DNA of 64,000 bases from Gammaproteobacteria bacterium (GTDB lineage: Bacteria > Pseudomonadota > Gammaproteobacteria > Pseudomonadales > Azotimanducaceae). Shown piece by piece: positions 6,617-28,265 of the stretch. Both the position numbers and the translations under genes were made by a program. The notes beneath the pieces were generated by a model that was not told the DNA's origin, ran no database searches, and saw nothing but the letters and a program-made list of their open reading frames with translations. Numbering within the stretch: position 1 is the first letter of the stretch; every line of letters begins with the position of its first letter. The stretch is taken from NCBI GenBank assembly GCA_009837185.1, contig VXUA01000083.1, positions 56,371 through 120,370 on the forward strand, in the 5' to 3' direction.

Positions 6617-9600
6617 CTACTCTCCGGTTCCAACTTGAACCCATCGAATCGCATCGCCAAATAGTTTCCCGTCGCTATTGCTTGGCTCCACACTGACAAC
6701 GGTGGTTCCTTGGTCCAATTGAGTTTCAGTAATGTATATCCAACCAAAATCACTCTCGCTGACATTCACGTCAATCACCTTAGAAACATCGCCAGCTTCA
6801 ACAGTGAACTTGTACTCTCCGGCTATGCTCTGCCAAAAAAAGTTATTCAAGTTAGCCGTTCCAATTCGACCTCGTGGTAATAACCCCCGAGGATAGTCAC
6901 CAAATTGACCTCGAAAATCGGGAAGATGAAACTCTAATAGCCACATCCCGGCACTTGGTAGGTCTGTTTGAAACGCAATGCTCTTTGGGTTTTCACTCTC
7001 ACTGTACACCATGGTTCGACGGGGACTCCCCCAGGCACTTGGGTAGTCGACACGCCGCCAAGTTTTGACATCATCGACGTGCCTGCCGTTTTCAACTGAA
7101 ACAGTTGAGTCTAGGTCATCAATCACAATACCAATTTCAGGTGGAGGGGAAGGTTTCCAATCGCTCGTTCGAAAACCGTGAAATTCTTCTAGTAGGTCTG
7201 GGTCGACGTTTCGAGTGTCTTGAACTAGTTTAGTGGGTACTGCGACCCGCCCCCCGCCAATCTTCAAGTTTAGAGGCTCCACGATTACGCGAATCGGCTC
7301 GCGCTCACTCACGATTCCTACTTCAACGCTTTCGCCGGGTTGTATGTAGACTACTGGTCCCTGACCAAATCCACCCATCCTCATATTCTGTGTGTCAAAG
7401 CTAGCCTGTAAGCCGATGTCGGCACCCAGGGCACCATACCCTTGAAATTCGGTAGTTACAGATGTTCGAAAGACTCCGGTGCCCTCACCGCTATTGAATA
7501 CATGAAACAAAATTTGATATTCGTCTTCAAGCTCATCGGGCACTGCTCGCTTGTAGGTCTGAGCGGATGAAACCTCCAATTGTGGTTGTTTATTTCCAGA
7601 AAACCAATTACCGAGTACTTCTTTTACGGGCAGCCCTAAGTCTGCACTAGTCTCGTACAGATCTTCGAGATTGAAATTGGAGTGTCTGTATCGAACCAAC
7701 AGCTCGTCCAACAGCAGCTTCGTGTCATCTCTACCCAAAACCTGAAACAGTTGGAAACTCAAATGAGCACAACGCAACCGGAGGGATTCGGCTAGGAAAG
7801 GGTTTAGATTTGACTTTATAGTCTGCTGAATCGACGACCCCAATGCTGCATTTTGAACTGCCTCCGTATTTAATCGTTTGCCCACAACGTCCTCTACGAC
7901 GTCAACATGTCTTAAAAGAGGTTTTAGTCTTCCAAAGATGCGAAGACCGGTTCGACCCATTCTGTTCCGACCTTGCCAACTCCAAAAACCTTGATTAGAC
8001 TCGCTTTGGGACGGTCTCATTTCTTTTGGAAAGTACCCGCTAGCGGAAAAACCATCCATGCTTGCATACCAGAACAAGTCATTCAGGTAGGACAATACTA
8101 AACTCAAAGCTTCAGCTTCTGGGCCAACGACACCAACTTCATGGTCCCAGTACGTATTGAACAGGTCAAGATGAAAATTAAATCCTTGAACATTTAATCG
8201 AAAATACTGCCTCAGAATCGTCACTAAATAGCTTCCCTGAGTCATGTCCATCTGTTCGAATAACGGGTACATGTACTCCGGAATGGTCTTCTGCCAGTCG
8301 ATTGAGATTACGTCAAATTCGCGTAGTAAATAGGAGCACTTGTCAGAAATCGACAAATTTAAAAACGTGCCTCCTCCGTACACTCGATAGTGTTGCGGTA
8401 CTGATATAAACCGGTAATCGCTACATGGGAACTCATAACCATCGGTTGAATTTGCTTCTAACTGTTCGGCTAGCGCGTCAGCAAGATCCTCTACGGATTC
8501 ACCAAGGAGACTTAGCCGGTTCAAATGGTGCTCTGAAATTAGAACTTCAAAATTGGTACCACTAATTTCTCGACTCAGTACCCTGAGAGGTCCCGCGTAT
8601 AAGCCGATAGAAGAGACAGGTACATCTGTAGTGAATTCATAGGTCTTGCTCGTTAATGGCGAGCCTTCCTCTTCTAACAAACGTCTCTTACCTGGTAGTG
8701 CGGGCTCCCAGTGTTTCGGTAATGTCAATTTAATACTTGAAGTAAAGAAGTCCTTGTGTTCTCGTAATTCGTGCAAAGGCAGAAATGCAGAAGGAAGCCA
8801 AGCAACTTCCTGTGGAAGCGCGACAAAATTAGAGCTGAAAATTCCGTGGGCATTCCCCATATAAGACAAAAGTTGATCCCAATATGGAATCTGTCTTATA
8901 TCGGTGGAACTATCGAAGTAACCATAAGCTAAGTCCGGTTTGCCCTGATATGTGATAGACAGGCTTATCCTCTGATCTTGTTTGAGTGGTTGTGTTAACT
9001 CCACTCGTAGCGCTCCTTTTGCGTCCAATTCCGAATTGACTTGGACCTCGTCAAGCTGGACCTCCGATACGACAAAACCAGGATTCAACCAAATGGTCAA
9101 GGGGTCATCGTCCGTATCTGCCAGCACAATTGCAGAGAGTTCGGTCGTAACAGAAAGGTGGTGCTTAGGATTGAGATTCACTATTGCATGAACGTCAATT
9201 ACGTCAATCTGTGGAACGATTGTTTCTGTACTGCGATCGCGCAAATCCGTCCATTGTCGGACCTTCGATGCTTGTTGCATAGCAATTGTGAAAGAAGTTC
9301 CGATACATACGACAAAGACTAGCCCGCACATTGATCCCACAATTAAATCTCGCCGCTTGAATACGTCCCGTCTCTGGTAGAACACAACAGCTAACAAAAA
9401 CAAACAAAAAATCGCTGAGAAGTAGCCGGAGTAGCGAACAATATCAAGAATTCCTAGTTGTTCAGGATCCAGATCTGAACCGAACGTCCCTATTAGTGGC
9501 AATCCCTCGAAGAGCACGTGCTGAGACAAAGAGAATTGCGTAATCAGGAAATAGCCTCCGATAACAGTTCCTAAAAGTGCGCTCATAGTCAGTAAATTGT

Positions 9601-17101: not shown

Positions 17102-18814
17102 ATTAACCTAAGGCAATTACTCACCGAATATCTCGACAAGAGTTTTACCAGTCTAGGAGTCGAGAACCCTAGTGCTCTCGTTTTTGCTACTGCCAATGAA
17201 GAATTTGGTGACTACCAGGCCAATGGTGCAATGGCGATTGCCAAAAAACTTGGTCGAAATCCTCAAAGCATCGCACAGGAAATTGTCGATCGCGAGCCAC
17301 TAGCCGATTTAAAAGCAAATTTAGATATCGGCGGGCCTGGTTTCATAAACATTCGCCTCGATGACGACTTCTTAGCAACCACTCTATCACAGTCGACGCT
17401 GTCTCAGCCTTTGGAGTGCGCAGAAACAATCGTCGTCGATTATTCTTCCCCGAACATTGCGAAGGAACTCCATGTAGGACATCTACGAAGTACTGTAATT
17501 GGTGACGCATTAGTACGTCTCTTTGAGTTCGTCGGACATAGGGTTATTCGACAAAACCATGTTGGTGATTGGGGTACGGCGTTCGGCAAACTAATCGCCT
17601 ACGTTAACTCGGATCAAGACTCTAGTAACCTTTCCATAGGTGGTATTGAAAAGCTGTATGTCGCCGCGAGTCAGGAATTTGATGCAAATCTCGACTTCGC
17701 CCAGAAGGCTCGGAATGAAGTTATCAAACTCCAACAACAAGATCCCGTTACACTCAAGACGTGGGAACATATCGTTCGTGCGTCGCTTGAAGACGTACAA
17801 CGCATTTACTCGGAACTTGACATTTCACTACAACTGTCGGATGTTCGTGGTGAAAGCTCGTATAACTCTGGATTACCTTCGGTAGTGAATGATCTTGAAA
17901 ATGCAGGCCTCATTGTGGAATCAGAAGGTGCGAAATGTGTATTCGTCAATGGTTTTCAACGCAAGGATGGCTCGCCACTTCCAATGATCGTCCAAAAATC
18001 TGACGGCGGTTACCTCTACCACACGACAGATTTAGCAGCCCTGAAGCACCGAACACAAGAGTTAGACGCTGATCGAATCATCTATCTCACAGACTCTAGG
18101 CAGATACACCACTTTCAAATTCTGTTCGCTGTTGGCAGACTTGTTGGCTACATTCCGAAAGAAGTTTCAACCGAACACCTTGTGTTTGGTTCAGTTCTGA
18201 ACAAAGACGGGGAACCATTCCGAACCCGCAGCGGCGACAATGTACTGTTGCGACAACTTATAGAAGAAGGCGTTGAACGTGCGTTGGATATCGTAAGTTC
18301 GAAGAGTGAGCATTTGACCAAAGATGAACAGCAACAAGTTGCCCGTCAAGTAGCTGTAGGTGCGATCAAGTATGCGGATTTATCGAAAAATCGCACAAAT
18401 GACTACCGATTTGATTGGGAAGTGATGCTTTCCCTTGATGGCAATACGGCTCCTTACCTTCAATACGCGCATGCGCGCATCTGTTCCATATTCACTCGTG
18501 CTAAAAAAGATGTGAGCGAGTTTCTTGAAGGAGAGATCGAGCTGCAACACCCGAGTGAGCGCTCGCTCGCGCTAAGGCTCTTAAGATTCGCTGAGACTCT
18601 GGAACAGTGTCTCGACGAACGTAAGCCTCACTATTTATGCAACTATCTTTACGAGTTAACGGTGCACTTTATGCGATTCTACGAGAACTGCCCAGTTCTT
18701 AAGGCGCAAACGCCAAAGTTGATGGATAGCAGACTTTGCCTTTGTGCTAAAACCGCGCAGGTTCTGCGGGTCGGACTGGAGAATTTAGGTATTTCGCTAC
18801 CGTTACGTATGTAA
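17102..18814 (+). CDS. argS: Arginyl-tRNA synthetase ArgS
   Basis: Motifs SSPNIAKELHVGHLRS and MSTR-like (FRTRSGD), plus the conserved N-terminal FGDYQANGAMAIAKKLG. This N-terminal domain lies upstream of the first ATG (17231), and there is no ATG, GTG or TTG between the in-frame TGA (17090-17092) and 17231. I place the start at ATT 17102, where INLRQLL aligns with E. coli MNIQALL. The exact start is uncertain. Confidence 0.85.
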   Translation: MNLRQLLTEYLDKSFTSLGVENPSALVFATANEEFGDYQANGAMAIAKKLGRNPQSIAQEIVDREPLADLKANLDIGGPGFINIRLDDDFLATTLSQSTLSQPLECAETIVVDYSSPNIAKELHVGHLRSTVIGDALVRLFEFVGHRVIRQNHVGDWGTAFGKLIAYVNSDQDSSNLSIGGIEKLYVAASQEFDANLDFAQKARNEVIKLQQQDPVTLKTWEHIVRASLEDVQRIYSELDISLQLSDVRGESSYNSGLPSVVNDLENAGLIVESEGAKCVFVNGFQRKDGSPLPMIVQKSDGGYLYHTTDLAALKHRTQELDADRIIYLTDSRQIHHFQILFAVGRLVGYIPKEVSTEHLVFGSVLNKDGEPFRTRSGDNVLLRQLIEEGVERALDIVSSKSEHLTKDEQQQVARQVAVGAIKYADLSKNRTNDYRFDWEVMLSLDGNTAPYLQYAHARICSIFTRAKKDVSEFLEGEIELQHPSERSLALRLLRFAETLEQCLDERKPHYLCNYLYELTVHFMRFYENCPVLKAQTPKLMDSRLCLCAKTAQVLRVGLENLGISLPLRM

Positions 18815-20008
18815 CGGTTTGACACTTTTTGGAACTGTATAGATCCTCAAGTCTCGCACAAATAAGCGCAAGTGTTCTAAGCCGGTTTCTTCGGCTTCTC
18901 GGCACCAAGTACGAAACTGCGCCAGCATTTCGTCCGCGTTCCCGCTTCGCTTAGCCAAAATAGCGATCAGCGATAGTCGTAACTCGTAGATACGTTTGAG
19001 TGCAGGACTTCTTTCGGTGATTTGATTGATGCGGTTCTTATCTCGTTCATGTAATACCACTTCATGTGCGTTCATTGCCTTTCTTCCGCGGCGCAGCAAC
19101 TTGCGGAAGTAACTGTCAGCACCTCGACGTTCTTGCTTAATCGTCGGATGAATGACCTGGCTTGCATAGGTCGACATTACTCGAAACCGGTCATTGATCA
19201 CGGCCCAAAGTGTATCCATATCTATCGAGGACTTTCCAGTAATCGTCGTGGCTACAGGTTGAGTGTGAACTGGTCGAGCAAGTTTGAAAAGACTGAGGAC
19301 GCGAATGTAGAACCACCCGATGTCGAACTCCCAAGGTTTCACAGCAAAGCGGGCTGAATTTGGGTAGGTGTGGTGATTGTTATGCAATTCCTCACCACAG
19401 ATAAATATTCCGATCGGGCAAATATTGCGAGAATTGTCTGGAGATTCAAAGTTGCGATAGCCGATCGCATGACCAATACCGTTTACCACTCCAGCACCCC
19501 AAAAAGGAGTCCAAATCATTTGTAAAGCCCAAACAACTACTCCAAGAATCCCGAATAGTGCGACATCGACAAGTAATAGACCAGCCACACCAAACCAGGT
19601 GAACTTTGAGTACACATTGCGTTCCACCCAATCATCGGGAGTTCCTTTACCATAGCGCTTTAACGTTTCTTCATCAATCGCGTCGCGGTAATATTCAACG
19701 CCTTGGAGAAGAATTGCACTCAAGCCGTGTATGACTGGACTATGAGGATCTTCATCCGTTTCTGTTTTTGCATGATGTTTGCGATGAACTGCAGTCCACT
19801 CCTTCGTGACCATGCCTGTAGTCATCCATAAGACAAAACGAAAGAAATGACTTACAGCGGGGTGCAAATCAAGTGACCGGTGGGCGGAATGTCGGTGTAA
19901 ATATAACGTGATTGCGATAAAAGTGACATGGGTAAAAACAAGAAAATATACCAATGCCCAAAGAGGCGAGAATCCGACAACGCCGAATGCCCAGTCAAAA
20001 TAATTCAC
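18803..20008 (-). CDS. Membrane acyl-CoA/acyl-lipid delta-9-type fatty-acid desaturase
   Basis: Three histidine boxes, HRHSAHR, HRKHHAKTE and HNNHHTYP, with N-terminal transmembrane helices. The 3' end overlaps the argS 3' end by 12 nt (convergent). Confidence 0.8.
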   Translation of the reverse strand: MNYFDWAFGVVGFSPLWALVYFLVFTHVTFIAITLYLHRHSAHRSLDLHPAVSHFFRFVLWMTTGMVTKEWTAVHRKHHAKTETDEDPHSPVIHGLSAILLQGVEYYRDAIDEETLKRYGKGTPDDWVERNVYSKFTWFGVAGLLLVDVALFGILGVVVWALQMIWTPFWGAGVVNGIGHAIGYRNFESPDNSRNICPIGIFICGEELHNNHHTYPNSARFAVKPWEFDIGWFYIRVLSLFKLARPVHTQPVATTITGKSSIDMDTLWAVINDRFRVMSTYASQVIHPTIKQERRGADSYFRKLLRRGRKAMNAHEVVLHERDKNRINQITERSPALKRIYELRLSLIAILAKRSGNADEMLAQFRTWCREAEETGLEHLRLFVRDLRIYTVPKSVKPLHT

Positions 20009-20215: not shown

Positions 20216-20572
20216 ATGAAAGAGTCTAGATACACGGTAAAAATGTCAGTTGCGGCAGCACTTAGATTTCGCGTGATGTTTCATTTTTTTCGGTTCCTAC
20301 AGATAGTCATAGCACCAGTACTGCTTTATGTCATGCTGTTTTACAAGAATACACGTGAAATTCATAAGTTCGATCTACCATCAAATTGTCTATTTACCGC
20401 TATCGATCAAACACCTTGGTGGAACATACCACCCTACGGGTTGATTCTGGTGGGCTTTCTGTTGTACGGTGTCATTGTCTGGATCTTTCATGACAGAAAT
20501 AATGAAAGCGGAATCGTAAATCTTGTGAACAAAAACATAAACAGTGATGAATCGATCGAGGTCAAAATATAA
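20216..20572 (+). CDS. Small hypothetical membrane protein (two predicted transmembrane helices)
   Basis: 118-aa ORF with two hydrophobic segments. No recognisable family. It lies just outside the left island repeat. Confidence 0.35.
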   Translation: MKESRYTVKMSVAAALRFRVMFHFFRFLQIVIAPVLLYVMLFYKNTREIHKFDLPSNCLFTAIDQTPWWNIPPYGLILVGFLLYGVIVWIFHDRNNESGIVNLVNKNINSDESIEVKI

Positions 20573-20681: not shown

Positions 20682-21356
20682 TTATTGTTGCACTAGAACC
20701 GAGAGTGTCTCCAATCCCTTTTTTACAATCACCCGCTCAATGTGATTCTGAATATCGGGAACAGCGTAAACCACAGTGAGTTCGACTACTCTTTCACCTC
20801 TTCGACGTCGCGTTTTCCAATGTGAGTATTTATACTCTTGAATTCTTGTAAAGCTTGCGTCGTCGCGGCTATGAGGCATCGGTTTGGTACACCCACTATT
20901 TATAGGACACAACCAAATGTTTGAGAAGTGAGCGTCAATCAATGATCTCGTATTCACTTCTAATATCTCATGTTCTCGGAGATGGTATTCCCTCGATGTT
21001 GTCATTCGATGAAGTCGTTCCTCACTCAACCAAAAAAACACTTTTGAATTTAGTAAAGCATACCAATCAGACGGTGTGATGTGGGACGGTAGACAACGAT
21101 ACAGTCCTGAGTCGCTCATGGCTTTTTGATCACGAATTACGGCATCATACAATCCTGGAGAACTTATAGTCGTACTTGATGGGCGATGTTCACGTTCAAG
21201 TGCTTCTCGCTTTGCTCCTCTTACGTCGTATAGGTCTAAGAGAGCCGAAGTACTACGTAAACCGTGCTTTCTAATGGAAGGCCAGGAGTGTCTCTCCGCC
21301 ATATGGTAGAGGATTGGGGAATCCTCAAGAAGTTCCTCTAGCTCTTGACTGGTCAC
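20682..21356 (-). CDS. Candidate DarT-like ADP-ribosyltransferase-fold protein (putative toxin/effector; may correspond to the family annotated DUF7002)
   Basis: N-terminal ILYHMAERHSWPSIRKHGL resembles the DarT/DUF4433 motif (YH-x-T-x-x-NL-x-SIL-x-x-GL, with the NAD-binding His). KVFFWLS resembles the DarT YVPFYF strand. C-terminal GERVVELTVVYAVPDI resembles the catalytic-Glu strand (AEFLVYEAFP). It overlaps the upstream gene by 4 nt. Motif-level similarity from memory only. Confidence 0.45.
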   Translation of the reverse strand: MTSQELEELLEDSPILYHMAERHSWPSIRKHGLRSTSALLDLYDVRGAKREALEREHRPSSTTISSPGLYDAVIRDQKAMSDSGLYRCLPSHITPSDWYALLNSKVFFWLSEERLHRMTTSREYHLREHEILEVNTRSLIDAHFSNIWLCPINSGCTKPMPHSRDDASFTRIQEYKYSHWKTRRRRGERVVELTVVYAVPDIQNHIERVIVKKGLETLSVLVQQ

Positions 21357-22987
21357 CAGGTTCTCCTGTCAATAATATTGCGCCAACCAAACCCAGTAGA
21401 CAATAGCGACACGGGTCGACCTGACACTCTCTCAATTTCTTCAACAAATCGAATGGTCTCTTCACTGAGTTGTTCAAACCGGTATGCTCTTCTATTCTCA
21501 ACCCCTAAGTAGTCTACAAACGTCAGGGCAATGTCGGTTGGTCCGTTTAACTGTATGGAATCCTTGAACTGTTCCCAATCGAATTCGGCGATACGTCGAG
21601 ACCTCTTTGTTGTAGTTGTGGTCTCAGTTGCTCTAAGCTCTTCCAAATCAATCTTACTACGTTCGTTTAGCTCTTCAATGTTTATTTCATATTTCAATGG
21701 TCCTGAAGGTCCGGCGACACGAATAGGATATGTACGACACACCATCACTATGTTTCTAACATTTGAAGGAGCGATACCAGCGTCTGAAAGGCATCCAGCA
21801 ACAGTGGTGTCTCGTGAGGTAACATACGGATATTGACCATGATGTAGACTCAACGTGGTACCCTGTGTTCCTTCTAACAAAATTTTTTTGTTCCTAACGA
21901 ATGCTTCGGCTAGCACCTCCCGGGCACTTCCAATATAGGGTTTCAACGCGTTGATATCTCGTGCTAATGCGCGTATAGTGTGGTTTTCATATCCAGATCT
22001 CCCTGTCACTTTGTGTGCAGTAGCCACTCCGACACCTTGCGCAGTAGAACCGATGTTTGAAAAGTTCTCTTCTTCGTACTTGATGTCCTCTTCTTGTATA
22101 GTCATGGCTTGGTGATCGATTGTAAGACGGTCGACGGTCACCTTGTGCTGTGCGATCTCTTGGAGCAGTTTGGTCGGATTTATAACCATGCCTGGACCTA
22201 GGAGCAATTTCGCCTCCGGAGCGCGTTGAGTACCCGATGGTAAGTGAAAGTATTTTTCTGGCGTGGGTTCAGCGTATACTTGGTGGCCTGCGTTCGGTCC
22301 GCCAGTTCGAATTAATAGGTTGTATTCAGGAGAAAGATATCCGACTATGTTTCCCTTTCCTTCACTGCCGTATTGTCCACCCACCAGCACGTCCACGATG
22401 TTTGTGTTAGACCGAGGGTATAGATTTAGAAGCGCTGTCGCTCGGATGAGTACATCCTCTTTACTACATCTGTCTGTAGGTACGACCGTATCGGCAATAG
22501 TTGCTAGTTGTTCGACTTTACGTTCAGTTTGGTTCCGAATTGCATCTACATAGTTAGTATTCGTGTCAGAAGTACGATCGCGTTCGTGATAACGTTCTTC
22601 CAAAACATTTGAAGCCGCTGTCAAATGAATATGATGGACACAATTCCCGTACGCACTACGAATAGCTTCTACTTGACCGGAGTTTCTTACACAGTCCACT
22701 ACAAACAACCCACTGGGTACCACGGAATTACTTGTCGCGAAGTCAATTTCACGTTGTATGTGATGAGCTAACCATTGACCTCCATCCCTTCTGTCTAGAC
22801 GATCACCAGCGCGTTGAAGAGCTAATCTATTAGACTGAATACGTGGACTACGACTTTTAATGAAGTCTTTAGTTTTTAAAACTGTTGCACCATATTGGCT
22901 TTCCAATTCCTTAGAAAGGATGGACTTCCCAGAACATATGGGACCAGAAATGAGAACTATACGAAGGGCGTCATCTCGGTGGTTCAA
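21353..22987 (-). CDS. Fusion protein: N-terminal P-loop nucleotide-kinase-like domain plus C-terminal short (archaeal/PurZ-like) adenylosuccinate-synthetase-family domain
   Basis: Residues 1-190 carry Walker A LISGPICSGKS and a Walker-B-like FVVDCVR. Residues about 195-544 align with PurA landmarks. GGQYGSEGKGN corresponds to GDEGKGK, with the catalytic Asp replaced by Ser. GGPNAGH corresponds to GGHNAGH and IGSTAQGVG to IGTTGRGIG. LEGTQGTTLSLHHGQYPYVTSR corresponds to [22 protein letters not shown], and TTTTKRSRR to TTGRRRR. Confidence 0.75.
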   Translation of the reverse strand: MNHRDDALRIVLISGPICSGKSILSKELESQYGATVLKTKDFIKSRSPRIQSNRLALQRAGDRLDRRDGGQWLAHHIQREIDFATSNSVVPSGLFVVDCVRNSGQVEAIRSAYGNCVHHIHLTAASNVLEERYHERDRTSDTNTNYVDAIRNQTERKVEQLATIADTVVPTDRCSKEDVLIRATALLNLYPRSNTNIVDVLVGGQYGSEGKGNIVGYLSPEYNLLIRTGGPNAGHQVYAEPTPEKYFHLPSGTQRAPEAKLLLGPGMVINPTKLLQEIAQHKVTVDRLTIDHQAMTIQEEDIKYEEENFSNIGSTAQGVGVATAHKVTGRSGYENHTIRALARDINALKPYIGSAREVLAEAFVRNKKILLEGTQGTTLSLHHGQYPYVTSRDTTVAGCLSDAGIAPSNVRNIVMVCRTYPIRVAGPSGPLKYEINIEELNERSKIDLEELRATETTTTTKRSRRIAEFDWEQFKDSIQLNGPTDIALTFVDYLGVENRRAYRFEQLSEETIRFVEEIERVSGRPVSLLSTGFGWRNIIDRRTW

Positions 22988-24325
22988 TCAAAACAGCTCC
23001 ACTTTGGGCTTCGAAGGTGGAGAGTCGTACACGTTTACAGTCAGTCCCGCTCTAATAAGAGTGTCGTCCAATATTTCCTCAATTACTTCCCACTTTCCCT
23101 GTGCGCTACCCGTACCAATTCTCGGCATGTGGACACTTGCACCGTTTGTCAATGCAATCTCAGATAATGTGTCTAAACAGCATTCCAATGCAGCGTAGCG
23201 AATTCTGGGAAACATTGACTTTCCATATCCTTCTTGCGCGATTAAGCTCGCTATCGTGGTTTCTTCGTCTACCTTGGTTAGGATTACTTGACCCAACCGT
23301 TTGTCACGAGGAATAGCTCGAATCGCTAGCGAGAAATCACTCTCAGCATCAGGATACATTGATGCCATTTGTTTCGCAACACCTCCTCCCCATCGTCCTG
23401 CTTGATCGTTAACGAGTTGGCAGAGAATCCTCGGAGCATCTCCTCTTGGAGTCAGAACGTTGCCATGAAAATACTCGACTGATGCTAAAGAACTCGTAGT
23501 CGGTTGGAATCCAACAAGTGTAGCAACACGAGGATAGGTTCTTCCGGGATATGCTGGAATTCCAACGCACTCAATAAGACTCCTCGTACCTACAACCCAG
23601 CTTTCTTCGGCTCGATTAGTGTAACCAATGGCCGTGCATTGGGTTACGACACTCTCGTCGGGTACAGGTCGGTTTGATAAGTGGACAGCGGGGGCATTTC
23701 GAGACGCTACGAAATAGTCTATGCGGTAACTCCTTGATGTATCGCTATCACCTCTAGGAGACGCAAAGAACACTATGGTAGGCTGGGCAGAAACCTTTAC
23801 TAGTCGAATGAAAAAGGCCTCCACAGATACGTCGTAGGCACAACATTGTTGCATGAGATCTTCAATTGGTGCAATTTGGGTATTTGGTGTCAAACTTCCG
23901 ATGGGGAGAACAAATTCTGCGGCAGCTAAATTACAAAGCAACTCGAGCTGCCAGGTATCGTCGGAATCTCTGTCGCCGCTGCGATTACGGGTTCGGCAAT
24001 GCCAATCCGAAAACAACAAATGTGCAACTTCGTGTGCAATAGAAAATCGAACCCTAGCTCTAACTTGGTGGGGGTTAAATTCAATGATCGGTTGTGCCTC
24101 ACTCCCAATTAACCTTGCATCTGAAATACTAGAATTTGCTCTGATTTTTGCGTTTAGCATTTCCGCGATAAAGGTCGGATTGAAGGGAGGACCTTCCCAG
24201 CCTGTTTCTTGTGCTTTCAGAACCAAATCTTGTGATCTCTCCTTAATCTTGTGTATTGGATCAGCATTGCCAGCGAATGCGAGAACCGATTCGTTCGTCC
24301 AGTTTATATTGGAATCTTTATCCAT
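22988..24325 (-). CDS. Fusion protein: N-terminal ImmA/IrrE-type (COG2856/M78) zinc metalloprotease, an unassigned middle region, and a C-terminal TARG1/DarG-like macrodomain
   Basis: HEXXH within FSIAHEVAHLLFSD in an ImmA-like N-terminal context. The C-terminal sequence ILCQLVNDQAGRWGGGVAKQMASMY...VHMPRIGTGSAQGKWEVIEEIL...VNVYD parallels TARG1 ([23 protein letters not shown]...[25 protein letters not shown]...ITVYT). The stop abuts the next gene's start (22988/22987). Confidence 0.75.
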   Translation of the reverse strand: MDKDSNINWTNESVLAFAGNADPIHKIKERSQDLVLKAQETGWEGPPFNPTFIAEMLNAKIRANSSISDARLIGSEAQPIIEFNPHQVRARVRFSIAHEVAHLLFSDWHCRTRNRSGDRDSDDTWQLELLCNLAAAEFVLPIGSLTPNTQIAPIEDLMQQCCAYDVSVEAFFIRLVKVSAQPTIVFFASPRGDSDTSRSYRIDYFVASRNAPAVHLSNRPVPDESVVTQCTAIGYTNRAEESWVVGTRSLIECVGIPAYPGRTYPRVATLVGFQPTTSSLASVEYFHGNVLTPRGDAPRILCQLVNDQAGRWGGGVAKQMASMYPDAESDFSLAIRAIPRDKRLGQVILTKVDEETTIASLIAQEGYGKSMFPRIRYAALECCLDTLSEIALTNGASVHMPRIGTGSAQGKWEVIEEILDDTLIRAGLTVNVYDSPPSKPKVELF

Positions 24326-24447
24326 AAATTAACGTCTAATTCTAAAATGCACGTCCTACCTTTCATGATTCGACCAGTCTAGAGTCGTTTGGTCAGAACA
24401 ACTTTTGGAACTGACATGTGACAACTCCAGTAGTGAGCAGTTTCGGG

Positions 24448-27400
24448 CTAATCTTTTTCAACCGTAACGATGCCTATTGCGACTTTATCTATAGCCTGCT
24501 TCATCGACACCGATAAATTCTCTCGTATGAACTTACTCAGCCGTCTCTGATTCCAATCTTCATGTTTACTGACAATATCAAGTGCACTCTCTTCAGCTTG
24601 TATTACTAACTTAACAAGATCTCGATGTCGAGAATTTTCAGTGTCAAAGATCGGAATTGGTACTTTCTTCCAAAATTGAGCATGAAAGTGACGATCAGTT
24701 TCCCGTGTAGCAGAAAATCGATCCTTCAACGACTCCGCATTCAATATCCCCACTAAATATTGAGCCTCCTCTTCGCTAGAAGCATCGAAATAGAAACAAG
24801 ACTCATCTACTAACAGATTGTTCGGAACTCGCGCGGCTCGCAGAATCTTACCGCCTTCGTTGTAGACAACACGAGAACCTTCATTCTTTGACCAAAATTG
24901 CGAAGTAACTTTGTTATAGTGGTTCAGATTCTCGATCAATGTTCTCGGCGTGCCGGCACCTTTGTTGCTCGGACTATCTTCCCATCTTGAACACGCGTTT
25001 CGCCAAAAAGGCACTTGCATTGCGCTCTCATTGTTCACCAAAGTAAACTGCTCAGAGTCCAAAGGTATGATGACCTTTGAGCAAACTGGTCTCACTGAAT
25101 AAGGAAAGAGGTCATAAGAGCGAACAACTGAGTGAATCCATCCTTCAGGTACTTCGAATTCTATCGGTGGATAGTTTTTCCAATGACTCTGTTTTGAAGA
25201 AACCGTCCAACCTCGCGCAGTTCCGTTGTGGTTCAGTCGTAGCGTTGAAGGATTAACGAGTACTAATACATGGGGTCGAAAACATGCACCCTGACGAAAG
25301 ACTGATTTCGCGGTTTTTTCAGAAAAATACTCTGATACGTCTGTGTCATATTGTTGTACGGATTGAGGTACCCGAACAACTTGATCTTGAACAATGTACC
25401 ACGGATCGTTGGGTTTGATTCTCGCCTTTTCAGTACTCATTCGCAGACTTTCATTCTTCTTTCCAATACCAATATACCACACACATGAAGCAGCGGTCGT
25501 AAAAGGTGGCTTTCTAGTCATTAATTCAAGTGAAGAAACGAGTGAATAGTCGTCGCGGAGCCGTTCGCGAAATTTCGCCCAAGTACCGGCACTCAAGGAG
25601 GCAGCATTCAAAACCCACCCAGCTCGGCTAGATTCGTTTGATAAATACATTTGTGAGCACTGTAGGACAAAAGTGCCTGCAACGTCAAAACTTGAAGCAC
25701 GTCTCCCACCGACCCAGAGTTTTAGTCGTTCCGCCAGATCCTTAAAAGTTGTTTTTCGATGTGGATTCTGGACAGTGTTTAATGTGATCCAAGGTGGGTT
25801 TGCGAGTATTCGATTGACTTTACGTTCCGCCAATAGTATCGGTGATATCCAGTTGTTGACATGGTACGCCCAAATACCATTTCCATCGAAATGACAAATA
25901 TCTTTTAACTCGCCAAAACTCTGTTCCAGTAGTTCGGAGTCGACCAAAGACAAATCCACAAACAAATCTGATGGAAATTTCTTCTGAGCGTTCGCTAAAT
26001 CGGTGAACCGTTTCATATCGCGAGCAAAATCCGCACGAGTAACGAACGAGCGAGGTAGGGTGAAAGATCGACCACTCTTTGGGGATCGAAACGTAAAGCT
26101 CTCTTGGCCAGGACGCACTCTCATGAAATCTAGTTCTTGCATTCCCTGACCCCATTCAGCTAAGAGCGAGTCACCCTGCCAAACGTTCAATGCTGAATCC
26201 CCTAGTGTGGGTGGCGCGGGCAGACTTCGTAGTAACGTAGTCTGGGCAAATTCCACTGCCACAGGATGTATATCGATTCCGAAGACTAATCGAGCCACGA
26301 CATCTGCTTGTTCTTCACGCGTCAACTCCATCTCTCTAAGTTTTGATACTTCAACGATTCGCCGAACCGCGTGGTACAGAAATGTCCCTGAACCACAGGT
26401 AGGATCTAGTACTCCCCAAGGCCGTACAATTTCCGATTTCTTCGTACGTCCACAACGCAAAGAGGCTTGAACCGCTTGCCGACACCAATCCTCGTCGAGC
26501 ACCTCTTCCGCAAGCATTTCTGCCAACCAATCGGGAGTGTAATATTCCCCATATATCTTTCGTTGGTCTTTCGGCACAATCTCTTGATACAACACCTGTA
26601 AGATATCGCCTTTTCTTTTACGCCAATCGAACATGTCCGTTTTATCCTGTACAGTCAGCAGCCAAGAATGTCCTTCTTGCACCTGACAAATCCAGTTGAT
26701 GAATCCCTCCGTTTGTAGACGCTCGCGTTCGTGCGAATCATGTGCATCTGGATCTACAAGAGCATTTCGTACAGCACGAGCAAAAGACACTAGCGCACAA
26801 TGACGTACAAACATAGTTTGTGCTTCTGATTCGTTACCATAGTCCATACCTGAAGCACGTATTGCATCCCACCAAAGATTAAACTGAATTTGGGCACCGC
26901 GCAGTTCTCTAGCTTGCTCCCAAATAGTCTGTAGTTGAGTCGCGTCATTAGCATACAGAATGTGAGGATTGAGCGGCGCTAACGGTTTACTTCCGTCTGA
27001 GCCTAATAAACGTAAGAACTCAACAATCGAACTTGGATCATTTCTAACATCCAATCGGACGGGTTCTGGCGAAAGTGGTTCCATTGCTCCAGGAGCATCT
27101 TGCCATTTCCACACCAACCATTGCTGGCCATCGGTAAGCACCACCGTCCACTCAAGTCTCTGCGCACTTTCAAGTTGTAGGTAACTAGCCTCCAACTGAC
27201 GAATACTTACTACGTAGCGTCGTACTTGTTCGAATTGAGTACCACCTGTTTGAAGTTGCGACTTCACGATCTTTCCAGTCGGTTTGCATTCAATCAATGT
27301 CCGATGCCCATGTAAATAGATGTCTACCGGGCCATCCCCCGTTTCCCATTGTTGCTCTGGTGAGAGTTTTAGTTCCTCGCAGAGATTGACTAGTGCTGTC

Positions 27401-27510
27401 TCCAACGATGCTTCTTTCGCATGTTTCTTACTCACCACGCTCAACAAGTCAACGAGCTTTTCTGAAATTTCTAATTGCAATTTATGCTGTCGAGTGTTTA
27501 AACAGTACAT
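24448..27510 (-). CDS. Type IIG/IIL-like (MmeI-like architecture) fused restriction endonuclease / N6-adenine DNA methyltransferase / target-recognition protein
   Basis: 1020 aa. N-terminal PD-(D/E)xK-like motif VDIYLHGHRTLIECKP. Gamma-class methyltransferase motifs in the order X, I, IV: YGEYYTPDWLAEML, VLDPTCGSGTFLYHAV and ILANPPWITL. The C-terminal ~400 aa would serve as the specificity domain. No separate S, R or BREX genes are nearby. Confidence 0.65.
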   Translation of the reverse strand: MYCLNTRQHKLQLEISEKLVDLLSVVSKKHAKEASLETALVNLCEELKLSPEQQWETGDGPVDIYLHGHRTLIECKPTGKIVKSQLQTGGTQFEQVRRYVVSIRQLEASYLQLESAQRLEWTVVLTDGQQWLVWKWQDAPGAMEPLSPEPVRLDVRNDPSSIVEFLRLLGSDGSKPLAPLNPHILYANDATQLQTIWEQARELRGAQIQFNLWWDAIRASGMDYGNESEAQTMFVRHCALVSFARAVRNALVDPDAHDSHERERLQTEGFINWICQVQEGHSWLLTVQDKTDMFDWRKRKGDILQVLYQEIVPKDQRKIYGEYYTPDWLAEMLAEEVLDEDWCRQAVQASLRCGRTKKSEIVRPWGVLDPTCGSGTFLYHAVRRIVEVSKLREMELTREEQADVVARLVFGIDIHPVAVEFAQTTLLRSLPAPPTLGDSALNVWQGDSLLAEWGQGMQELDFMRVRPGQESFTFRSPKSGRSFTLPRSFVTRADFARDMKRFTDLANAQKKFPSDLFVDLSLVDSELLEQSFGELKDICHFDGNGIWAYHVNNWISPILLAERKVNRILANPPWITLNTVQNPHRKTTFKDLAERLKLWVGGRRASSFDVAGTFVLQCSQMYLSNESSRAGWVLNAASLSAGTWAKFRERLRDDYSLVSSLELMTRKPPFTTAASCVWYIGIGKKNESLRMSTEKARIKPNDPWYIVQDQVVRVPQSVQQYDTDVSEYFSEKTAKSVFRQGACFRPHVLVLVNPSTLRLNHNGTARGWTVSSKQSHWKNYPPIEFEVPEGWIHSVVRSYDLFPYSVRPVCSKVIIPLDSEQFTLVNNESAMQVPFWRNACSRWEDSPSNKGAGTPRTLIENLNHYNKVTSQFWSKNEGSRVVYNEGGKILRAARVPNNLLVDESCFYFDASSEEEAQYLVGILNAESLKDRFSATRETDRHFHAQFWKKVPIPIFDTENSRHRDLVKLVIQAEESALDIVSKHEDWNQRRLSKFIRENLSVSMKQAIDKVAIGIVTVEKD
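27500..27510 (+). repeat. Right copy of the exact 11-bp direct repeat (AAACAGTACAT); overlaps the start codon of the methyltransferase gene
   Basis: Identical to 20587-20597. AACAGTAC recurs 6 nt further on, at 27516-27523. Confidence 0.4.
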
Positions 27511-27722: not shown

Positions 27723-28265
27723 ATGCTCAATCGACGAAAATTCACTATCGCATCCACTACTATTCCGCTTTCCATCGTAATGACTCGATCTATGATCGGA
27801 CAAACAGAGGACGAGACCACTGAGGTCGATGTAGCCGAGTCTGAAGAAGAATCTTTAAAAACTGAAATACCAGAAGAACTCGAGACTGCAAAGCTTATTT
27901 ATCTCACCCCTATTAAAACAGATGGAGAAGAAAGCAAGTGTCAAGGCGAAGTCTGGTTCGTGTATTTAGATTCCAAACTTTATATAACGACTGCATCTGA
28001 TGCATGGCGAGCTGAGGCAATTCGTAAAGACCTAAAAGACACGCGTATTTGGATAGGTGATTACGGAGTTTGGACTCGAGCAAAGGAAAAGTACAAAGAA
28101 GGGCCAGAACTCATGCTAGAAGGTTCGATCTTTGACGACGAAGACAAACTCCCTGAGATTCTTGAAGCGTTTACCGAAAAATACGGTACCGGTCGATATC
28201 CTCGCGTTTTCAAAGAGGAAATCGAAGAGGAGAAGCGAGTCGTATTGGAATATGAGGTAAAGTAG
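27723..28265 (+). CDS. Hypothetical exported protein with a Tat-type signal peptide
   Basis: N-terminal LNRRKFTIASTTIPLSIVM has the twin-arginine pattern. An acidic linker and a ~120-aa globular domain follow. I did not recognise a family. Confidence 0.5.
   Translation: MLNRRKFTIASTTIPLSIVMTRSMIGQTEDETTEVDVAESEEESLKTEIPEELETAKLIYLTPIKTDGEESKCQGEVWFVYLDSKLYITTASDAWRAEAIRKDLKDTRIWIGDYGVWTRAKEKYKEGPELMLEGSIFDDEDKLPEILEAFTEKYGTGRYPRVFKEEIEEEKRVVLEYEVK

Follow-up and report, generated by a model that had tools for sequence, protein, structure and literature searches.

A kinase-fused, PurZ-like adenylosuccinate synthetase homologue and a DUF7002 protein form the core of a mobile cassette with a predicted role in guanine nucleotide metabolism

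What does an adenylosuccinate synthetase (AdSS) homologue do when it lacks the catalytic aspartate of PurA, is fused to a nucleotide kinase, and is encoded between a macrodomain gene and an ADP-ribosyltransferase (ART)-like gene? This question is raised by the middle gene (gene 2; 21353..22987, minus strand; 544 amino acids) of a three-gene cassette in a 64,000-nucleotide stretch from an Azotimanducaceae gammaproteobacterium (GenBank assembly GCA_009837185.1, contig VXUA01000083.1, positions 56,371 to 120,370 of the forward strand). We refer to this whole stretch as the window and give coordinates within it. A sequence-only reading of the locus had pointed to the Asp-to-Ser change and the short, archaeal-like AdSS domain as traits shared with PurZ, the phage enzyme that uses deoxyguanosine monophosphate (dGMP) instead of inosine monophosphate (IMP) to start 2-aminoadenine (Z) synthesis. 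It had proposed that the enzyme is retargeted to another substrate, for example dGMP or guanosine monophosphate (GMP), and does not serve housekeeping synthesis of adenosine monophosphate (AMP).

The open reading frame (ORF), Pfam, NCBIfam, the Protein Data Bank (PDB), and an AlphaFold2 (AF2) model together define the product as a fusion of a nucleoside monophosphate (NMP) kinase and a PurZ0-like AdSS. The model had a predicted local distance difference test score (pLDDT) of 91.8 and a predicted template-modeling score (pTM) of 0.86. The C-terminal domain (residues 198-542; 21362..22396, minus strand) was assigned to the short-type AdSS fold from Pfam, NCBIfam, Foldseek, and a residue table, and the Pfam match to Adenylsucc_synt (1.1e-57) lies far beyond chance. 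The best NCBIfam model is PRK04293, of the archaeal short type (281.5 bits), and the best PDB sequence match is P. horikoshii PurA (2e-51), followed by phiVC8 PurZ (1.2e-34) and PurZ0 7VF6 (5e-22). Foldseek gave the same order (TMt 0.91 for 5k7x, 0.84 and 0.82 for PurZ 6fko and 7odx, and 0.78 for PurZ0 7vf6). The Pfam, PRK04293, and 5k7x matches thus bear out the earlier description of a P-loop kinase joined to a short archaeal-like AdSS, and every motif it had quoted is found in the translation (GPICSGKS, residues 15-22; GSEGKG, 207-212; NAGH, 232-235; IGSTAQG, 312-318; EGTQG...YPYVTS, 372-391; TTTTTKRSRR, 456-465).

The N-terminal domain (residues 9-186; 22430..22963, minus strand) was assigned to the NMP-kinase fold from Pfam, PADLOC, PDB, and Foldseek matches. 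Its Pfam matches over residues 11-157, to AAA_18 (6e-06) and AAA_33 (5e-05), both fall under the gathering scores, and the PDB sequence match is to the Sulfolobus AdkA-like protein 3lw7 (3e-04). In Foldseek, AMP-bound 3lw7 came first (TMt 0.79), with AK1 and AK5 next. The P-loop spans G15-S22, and the family alignment shows its Lys21, together with D98, R101, Q105, and R132, to be near-invariant; the D98-x-x-R101-x-x-x-Q105 segment is read as a probable NMP-binding motif.

The catalytic loop holds the substitution on which the question turns. Ser208 (codon 22364..22366, minus strand; QYGSEGK in the translation of 22355-22375) sits exactly in the column that the catalytic Asp13 occupies in E. 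coli PurA, as the sequence-only reading had recognized. Our alignment set contained E. coli PurA, the PurZ proteins of phage S-2L, of VP2 (a phiVC8 relative), and of an Acinetobacter phage, and an Arthrobacter-phage homologue taken as PurZ0; serine also occupies this column in all three PurZ proteins (Ser23 in S-2L) and in the PurZ0-type homologue. According to a 2026 survey, 99% of PurA-type sequences have Asp13, and serine is found in 147 of 147 phage PurZ/PurZ0 sequences (PMC12884076). The trait is thus indeed one shared with PurZ and is not common in canonical PurA. In the fused family, 47 of 49 cluster representatives, spanning 32-68% identity, have serine at position 13. In an exhaustive search with the AdSS domain, which recovered fused forms down to about 40% identity, Ser13 was present in 129 of the top 140 cluster representatives (at least 320 amino acids long, plus reference sequences).

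The base pocket around this serine is also in the PurZ/PurZ0 state, with Trp11, Asp13, and Thr128 of E. coli PurA replaced by Tyr206, Ser208, and Ser314. Positions 13 and 128 covary: each of the 47 fused representatives that carry Ser13 also carries Ser128, and Thr128 is found in four of five Asp-type sequences. The dGMP pocket of S-2L PurZ consists of Y21, G22, S23, N49, A50, T132, Q190, V241, G130, S131, Y203, T205, and R240 (PMC8342488), and the pocket alignment that the earlier reading had called for found all 13 of these residues to be identical in the gene 2 protein. Given this PurZ-state base pocket, we infer that the substrate is a guanine (2-amino-6-oxopurine) nucleotide. Substrate retargeting, as proposed earlier, thus gains support from the pocket residues and from gene context, and it stands as a prediction.

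The other catalytic residues are kept: Lys211, Asn232, and His235 (E. coli Lys16, Asn38, and His41); Gln375, Thr390, and Arg423/Val424 (Gln224, Thr239, and Arg272/Val273); and, in the aspartate loop, Thr459/Thr460/Arg462/Arg464 (Thr300/Thr301/Arg303/Arg305). Across the family, the residue table shows conservation of those that serve phosphoryl transfer and aspartate attack, and position 305 is arginine in 41 of 41 fused sequences and position 333 aspartate in 41 of 41 (E. coli numbering); Ser530 is conserved as well. Asp492 and Ser530 align with Asp333 and Ser414 of E. coli PurA, which we take to be the guanine-recognizing residues, and since both equivalents are kept, guanosine triphosphate (GTP) is the predicted phosphoryl donor. 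In PurZ, in contrast, position 333 is Asn or Gln and the donor is adenosine triphosphate (ATP) or its deoxy form (dATP) (PMC8342488), whereas gene 2 retains the aspartate, like PurA and the Arthrobacter-phage homologue. The AdSS domain is therefore predicted to combine a PurZ-type base pocket with a GTP-type donor pocket, with its other catalytic residues intact.

Is the enzyme, then, a PurA or a PurZ? Curated thresholds would make it neither PurA nor PurZ/PurZ0. Its scores fall under the NCBIfam cut-offs for PurA (281.5 against 368 for PRK04293, 210 against 395.55 for TIGR00184, and 181.4 against 402 for PRK01117). In a neighbor-joining phylogeny with 100 bootstraps, support was 97-100 for the short-type superclade and 100 for phage PurZ, while the fused family formed a separate clade with a bootstrap of 44 and deeper nodes stayed below 20. 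Any placement of the fused clade relative to PurZ, PurZ0, and Asp-type archaeal PurA is tentative, with bootstraps of 44 or less at the relevant nodes. Similarly, the name PurZ-like is apt for the pocket signature, but the protein is not PurZ proper, being below the cut-off, in its own clade, and equipped with a GTP-type donor pocket.

The distribution of the fusion is sporadic: it was found in at least 545 of 185,579 species genomes and also on plasmids, with about 50% identity between bacteria and Thaumarchaeota. At one locus (L040), a canonical 430-amino-acid purA with the GDEGKG loop lies about 3 kb from the fusion gene. The sporadic, horizontally spread pattern, the scores below the PurA cut-offs, and the canonical purA near the L040 copy agree with the earlier argument against housekeeping AMP synthesis, and on sequence grounds we conclude that gene 2 probably encodes something other than an AMP-biosynthesis enzyme.

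Among known systems, the enzyme would work like PurZ0. PurZ0 of Arthrobacter and Gordonia phages (7VF6) shares with gene 2 the short AdSS fold, the GSE(G/A)KG loop with Ser13, Ser128, Tyr11, Asp333, and the intact aspartate loop. However, gene 2 is only about 33% identical to PurZ0 (TMt 0.78), falls in a separate clade, carries the NMP-kinase fusion, has Arg and not Lys at position 303, and occurs in a cellular or plasmid context; its partners are an ART-like protein and a macrodomain, whereas those of PurZ0 are DutZ/DmtZ/DpoZ. According to its original description, PurZ0 reportedly uses GTP. The PurZ-phylogeny section of PMC12884076 states that PurZ0 and PurZ prefer "ATP and GTP, respectively", which is probably a word-order slip, as it conflicts with that paper's own introduction, where PurZ uses ATP, and with the residues described here. 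PurZ itself (phiVC8, S-2L, and Acinetobacter phages; 6FM1, 7ODX) has Ser13 and the identical dGMP-pocket set and would share the two-step ligase chemistry, but it differs in Asn/Gln333 and its ATP/dATP donor, where gene 2 has Asp. Gene 2 also lacks Z-cluster partners in the window, where we found no DatZ, MazZ, DutZ, DmtZ, DpoZ, or phage structural genes. The short archaeal PurA of P. horikoshii (PH0438; 2D7U/5K7X) shares the length class and the GTP-type pocket and is the best overall match (2e-51; TMt 0.91-0.92; root mean square deviation, 2.2 A), but it has GDEGKG, Trp11, and Thr128 where gene 2 has Ser, Tyr, and Ser.

A further comparison concerns the kinase. Anti-phage dCTP deaminase (PADLOC dCTPase, NF041025) likewise joins a kinase-like domain to a base-modifying domain, and the kinase domain of gene 2 is homologous to its kinase-like region (PADLOC 5e-06, covering only profile positions 156-286 of 630; NCBIfam 5.8e-04). 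By analogy, this common architecture suggests manipulation of nucleotide pools. Gene 2 differs in carrying a C-terminal PurA/PurZ-type ligase in place of a deaminase and in belonging to a multigene cassette, and it is predicted to act on guanine nucleotides and not on those of cytosine.

The neighbors of gene 2 are those named in the sequence-only reading, a macrodomain gene upstream and an ART-like gene downstream, the latter with an ART fold in our DUF7002 model. Gene 1 (22988..24325, minus strand; 445 amino acids) was identified from Pfam, PADLOC, and PDB matches as an M78 (ImmA/IrrE/CapP-like) zinc peptidase with a C-terminal macrodomain (M78-macro). The peptidase region (residues ~38-235; 23621..24214, minus strand) has an HExxH motif (HEVAH) and matches Pfam Peptidase_M78 (3.4e-05), PADLOC capP (1.2e-17, residues 38-235) and RmrA (4.5e-07), and IrrE 3dte in the PDB (1.4e-03); gene 1 also matches PADLOC DarG (4e-04). 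The macrodomain (residues ~272-441; 23003..23512, minus strand) contains GGGV and PRIGTG loops and was delimited by PDB sequence matches to BT1257 (2fg1/2afc, 3-4e-20), SCO6735 (5e3b, 1.5e-18), the ALC1 macrodomain (3e-08), and an ADP-ribose-1''-phosphate phosphatase (4e-07). The TGA stop of gene 1 abuts the TTG start of gene 2. The GTG start of gene 3 in turn overlaps the gene 2 stop (GTGA), with AGGAGA 8 nucleotides upstream, and genes 2 and 3 are translationally coupled.

Gene 3 (20682..21356, minus strand; 224 amino acids) encodes a DUF7002 protein (Pfam 3.7e-70) with a predicted DarT-like ART fold (AF2 pLDDT 81). The top Foldseek matches of the model all have the ART fold, with DarT1 8baq best (1.2e-03) and Mycobacterium tuberculosis and Thermus DarT, cholera toxin, and Tpt1/KptA among the others; against DarT1 and DarT, E values were 1.2e-03 to 7e-03 and template-modeling (TM) scores 0.40-0.45. 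In sequence, DUF7002 had no match in PDB, PADLOC, NCBIfam, or PHROGs, and gene 3 had no DarT match in PADLOC or Pfam. Invariant residues in the family alignment are H18, F107-F108-W109, and E192. A 2025 bioinformatic survey describes an ART-like family, 'Lmac_3114', with Hxx/FFW/xxE motifs and with an AdSS domain in 60% of its neighborhoods, along with an AAA domain (PMC12522546, BMC Genomics 2025). The passages of that survey considered here make 'Lmac_3114' resemble DUF7002 both in the Hxx, FFW, and xxE motifs and in the AdSS/AAA association. The same passages, from a nonexperimental study, assign the AdSS partner to ordinary purine synthesis, seen as a control on NAD availability, and make no mention of Ser13 or the PurZ-type pocket, the kinase fusion family, or the M78-macro gene.

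The cassette recalls DarTG in pairing an ART-fold protein, with best fold matches to DarT1 and DarT, with a macrodomain protein encoded upstream. It differs from DarTG in joining its macrodomain to an M78 peptidase and not to a DarT-binding domain, in having a third, enzyme-encoding gene between macrodomain and ART, and in giving the ART the PurZ-like enzyme, not the macrodomain, as its constant partner.

We assessed how widely this arrangement occurs using one genome per species, and the locus statistics below cover the best 80 loci from the at least 545 matching genomes. These 80 loci (48-72% identity) come from about ten phyla in all, including Alpha- and Gammaproteobacteria, Binatia, Planctomycetota, Verrucomicrobiota, Acidobacteriota, Chloroflexota, Gemmatimonadota, Myxococcota, and Thaumarchaeota. 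A protein-database search added 120 full-length fusions at 63-69% identity and a single partial entry, 99% identical, that comes from a metagenome-assembled genome (MAG) of Gammaproteobacteria. The fusion, which had been called unusual, is therefore not rare: it is a large family with an obligate DUF7002 partnership. The order M78-macro, fusion, DUF7002 was complete in 65 of 80 loci, with M78-macro directly upstream of the fusion in 71; the first gene was absent in six loci and the last in six, some of them at contig ends. Gene junctions in the cassette abut or overlap. In loci without M78-macro we found no replacement eraser, the upstream genes being Fic, Mrr, or integrases. In a Bryobacterales MAG (L055:5992-8265, plus strand), kinase, PurZ-like domain, and DUF7002 form a single 757-amino-acid ORF. 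The two core genes may be naturally fused there, or their stop codon may have been lost through a sequencing error; a natural fusion would suggest that the enzyme and DUF7002 form a complex. One archaeal contig, from a Thaumarchaeota MAG (L045:5992-11366), carries two tail-to-tail copies of the cassette.

The flanks of the cassette are heterogeneous, with 110 Pfam families among 137 neighboring ORFs. Judged qualitatively, restriction-modification (RM), toxin-antitoxin, and integrase genes abound in them; the families include RM subunits, PIN, Fic, CHAT, Bil, MADS, ArdC, integrases, and transposases, and no recurrent purine-biosynthesis family appears among the 25 most frequent neighbor families listed. 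Among 50,697 phage records, 219 matched the fusion, none of them above 33% identity; their annotations (adenylosuccinate synthetase, 'PurA-like', or '2-aminooxy adenylosuccinate synthetase') mark them as genes of the PurZ/PurZ0 type. We conclude that the cassette is mobile and horizontally spread, and that the kinase-PurZ-like enzyme and DUF7002 are its invariant, coupled core, with M78-macro a frequent partner.

Plasmid-borne variants show which parts of the cassette travel together. On rhizobial, Burkholderia, and Ralstonia plasmids, the fusion occurs with DUF7002 only (hhalign 1e-51 to 1e-60), and plasmid copies, some of them on conjugative plasmids, lie beside AbiE, SIR2, VapBC, and RelA/SpoT-type genes. 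Given that the macrodomain is dispensable on plasmids, the link between the enzyme and the ART becomes the central question. All four rhizobial loci on Agrobacterium/Rhizobium plasmids (L096, L099, L100, and L101) encode a conserved HD protein of about 182 amino acids that is weakly YfbR/DatZ-like (Pfam 1.5e-04; BLASTP to S-2L DatZ 6e-04), and such partners were found in the rhizobial plasmid variants only. Three of these four loci also carry a 456-amino-acid protein without a family match. A conjugative plasmid of Sinorhizobium medicae (L098:4296-7057) encodes an unfused Ser-type AdSS (GSEGKG) that overlaps a 340-amino-acid dCTP-deaminase/dUTPase-like gene and is preceded by a rhizobial-type HD gene. 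This set resembles a phage Z-cluster (PurZ with DatZ/DutZ), but its setting is a plasmid, with toxin-antitoxin genes as neighbors.

Other variants add a kinase or a peptidase. Burkholderia/Ralstonia loci carry an extra, free-standing kinase gene, adenylate-kinase-like and paralogous to the fused kinase domain, which at L102:3447-3992 lies directly upstream of the fusion gene and overlaps it; a match to this paralogue at L097:13-291 lies about 4.7 kb upstream of the fusion, beyond transposase genes. A 746-amino-acid protein (P0259, at L092) has two tandem kinase domains and is encoded in a ParE/PIN/Phd/RelB island. In about seven marine alphaproteobacterial loci (L016, L017, L019, L020, L022, L025, and L031), a fourth gene (~8273-9436) overlaps the DUF7002 stop and encodes a zinc peptidase of about 385 amino acids that is Lit/peptidase_U41/M48-like (PADLOC 1e-08 to 1e-09; NCBIfam phage exclusion protein Lit, 1.6e-03).

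What could such a cassette do? The account we favor, in which we have about as much confidence as doubt, is that it is a mobile conflict cassette whose bifunctional enzyme acts on guanine (deoxy)nucleotides in place of IMP, with GTP and aspartate as the other substrates. The reaction would be of the PurZ0 type, (d)GMP + GTP + L-aspartate -> N6-succino-2-amino-(d)AMP + GDP + Pi, and the fused NMP kinase would catalyze an adjacent step between nucleoside mono- and diphosphates, feeding guanine nucleotides in or pulling the product onward. When cued by phage or stress, the module would rewire the guanine (deoxy)nucleotide pool, leading to (d)GTP depletion and/or toxic 2-aminoadenine-type or succinyl-purine nucleotides, together with NAD-dependent ADP-ribosylation. 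The macrodomain would be the eraser or antidote, and the M78 peptidase would be the switch. Parallels to this proposed logic exist in DarTG, in RosmerTA/CapP, and in the kinase-fused dCTP deaminase that acts against phage, and by analogy with such systems the cassette would serve anti-phage defense, abortive infection, or a toxin-antitoxin-like function. In E. coli, expressing the phage Z-cluster is toxic (PMC8342488), and therefore a host-encoded version could act as a poison.

Several points weigh against this account. The activity of gene 2 and the role of the cassette are read from sequence, predicted structure, and gene context. The protein scores 213.2 bits against the NCBIfam PurZ cut-off of 300 (NF038379), resembles archaeal PurA more than PurZ in both sequence and fold, and is related to PurZ/PurZ0 through nodes with bootstraps of 44 or less. 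Its Ser pocket could accept another 6-oxopurine substrate. According to the work of Honzatko and Fromm, Arg303 of E. coli PurA reportedly links the IMP 2'-OH to aspartate binding, and since gene 2 retains this arginine (Arg462), where PurZ has Leu or Lys, the ribonucleotide GMP rather than dGMP is a possible substrate. The assignment of DUF7002 to the ART fold is a weak structural match (TM 0.40-0.45, E ~1e-03), and neither DUF7002 nor the cassette is represented by a model in PADLOC, NCBIfam, or PHROGs. In addition, the two-gene plasmid variants are without any macrodomain, and simple DarT-toxin/macrodomain-antidote logic therefore fails for the core.

A bolder form of the favored conflict-cassette account, which we advance tentatively and consider somewhat doubtful, is that an immune or toxin module deliberately runs PurZ-type chemistry and that the cellular Ser-type clade is linked to the origin of phage PurZ/PurZ0. 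Host PurB and kinases would turn succino-2-aminoadenine nucleotides into Z nucleotides, and replication would be poisoned or starved together with the action of the DarT-like ART. Phages would have taken PurZ/PurZ0 from the cellular clade, or else a defense system would have captured phage Z chemistry. Four uncharacterized archaeal Ser/Gly homologues have been placed basal to PurZ (PMC12884076), and these may belong to the kinase-fused family. On a phage-like metagenome contig (L091:4558-6254), we observed a short Ser-type AdSS, P0267, that is 46% identical to the gene 2 domain, and directly before it an HD gene homologous to that of the rhizobial plasmids (5e-13). As judged by sequence, this HD gene appears to link the cellular and viral gene sets.

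Alternatively, the enzyme could be the sole effector, acting as a guanine-nucleotide sink, while DUF7002 and the macrodomain toggle it by reversible ADP-ribosylation, as DraT and DraG do with nitrogenase. Consistent with such regulation, the enzyme and DUF7002 form an obligate, translationally coupled core that is apparently fused in one instance, the macrodomain can be dispensed with on plasmids, and the kinase plus base-modifying architecture parallels a dCTP deaminase that acts against phage as a single protein. We nonetheless think this rather unlikely, given that the nearest structural relatives of DUF7002 are DNA-modifying DarT proteins and not protein-arginine ARTs such as DraT, and that no target residue can be proposed.

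Less probable still, to our minds, is that the enzyme and the ART jointly build a nucleotide conjugate, serving as a signal or toxin, that the macrodomain degrades; ADP-ribose might, for example, be esterified to the succinyl-purine carboxylate or placed on the 5'-phosphate or 2-amino group. The invariance of the enzyme/ART pair, and its one apparent fusion, would fit joint synthesis. Macrodomain relatives such as SCO6735 and ALC1 cleave ADP-ribose esters, and SCO6735, the ALC1 macrodomain, and ADP-ribose-1''-phosphate phosphatases are all among the macrodomain matches. In the relevant passages of PMC12522546, docking put NAD at a nonstandard site of the Lmac_3114/DUF7002 model. The idea is, however, purely inferential, and the cassette includes no conserved receptor or effector protein.

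Genuine Z-base modification, in which the enzyme would help supply dZTP for 2-aminoadenine in prophage, plasmid, or host DNA as protection against restriction, is improbable despite the PurZ-type pocket, the DatZ/YfbR-like HD partners on rhizobial plasmids, and the Z-cluster-like set at L098. The cassette in the window comes without DatZ, MazZ, DpoZ, or phage structural genes and sits in chromosomes of many phyla between unrelated flanks; its phage matches are all at or below 33% identity (219 records of 50,697), and its partners, an ART and a macrodomain, are not used by Z-phages. An ordinary or back-up AdSS (IMP to adenylosuccinate) with a chance kinase fusion has in its favor the source-database annotation, the intact GTP and aspartate sites, and the best overall similarity to archaeal PurA, but we judge it highly improbable given the family-wide replacement of Asp13 (47 of 49 Ser, against 99% Asp in PurA), scores below every PurA equivalog cut-off, the sporadic cross-domain distribution at about 50% identity, the canonical purA coexisting at L040, and the lack of recurrent purine-gene neighbors among the 25 most frequent families. 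RNA repair or modification, with a Tpt1-like ART acting on phosphates, the macrodomain on ADP-ribose-1''-phosphate, and the kinase on RNA ends, could draw on the Tpt1/KptA fold matches and the phosphatase match of the macrodomain (4e-07), but is equally improbable, as the kinase has the NMP and not the polynucleotide-kinase fold, no ligase is present, the Tpt1 matches are weaker than those to DarT (E 0.2-0.5 against 1e-03), and the AdSS fold, to our knowledge, binds mononucleotides.

In the literature we found no experimental study of the cassette and no papers on DUF7002, and a search for AdSS with anti-phage activity returned one unrelated mention. Among the studies found, the 2025 survey of Legionella ARTs (PMC12522546) is alone in having described the ART-AdSS association. 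Apart from the four archaeal Ser/Gly homologues (PMC12884076), PurZ chemistry has so far been a matter of Z-genome phages; its active-site signature is now found in a large cellular family that is kinase-fused, tied to an ART-fold protein, and carried in a mobile cassette with features typical of anti-phage and toxin-antitoxin systems. If the favored account is true, this would be a new immune manipulation of nucleotide pools, directed at guanine rather than cytosine or adenine nucleotides, would provide the first function for DUF7002 (the 'Lmac_3114' family), and would open a concrete route to testing the origin of phage Z-base synthesis. Our results also correct a systematic misannotation in databases, as the source records read 'adenylosuccinate synthetase' and RefSeq plasmid records add a purine nucleotide biosynthesis Gene Ontology term.

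In the window, the gene directly upstream of the cassette (24448-27510, minus strand) encodes a 1,020-amino-acid type IIG RM-like protein that matches PADLOC REase_MTase_IIG (3.7e-38) and N6_Mtase/MmeI_Mtase. A weak candidate sigma-70-like promoter of the three-gene operon (24339..24366, minus strand; ATGAAA-16-TAGAAT, 9 of 12 matches) is not above chance: the region held 8 promoter-like sites, where shuffled sequence would be expected to give 13.7, and neither the promoter nor the terminator scan exceeded shuffled expectation. We found no tRNA genes in the window and no convincing att-like direct repeats around the island. The GC content is 0.426-0.430 at 20-22 kb and 24-26 kb and about 0.46 elsewhere in the window. 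The RM-like gene and the GC dips suggest a defense islet of about 7.5 kb between a desaturase-like gene (18803-20008) and position 27723 onward. Between the desaturase-like gene and the cassette lies a putative 118-amino-acid ORF (20216-20572, plus strand) with hydrophobic stretches and no family match.

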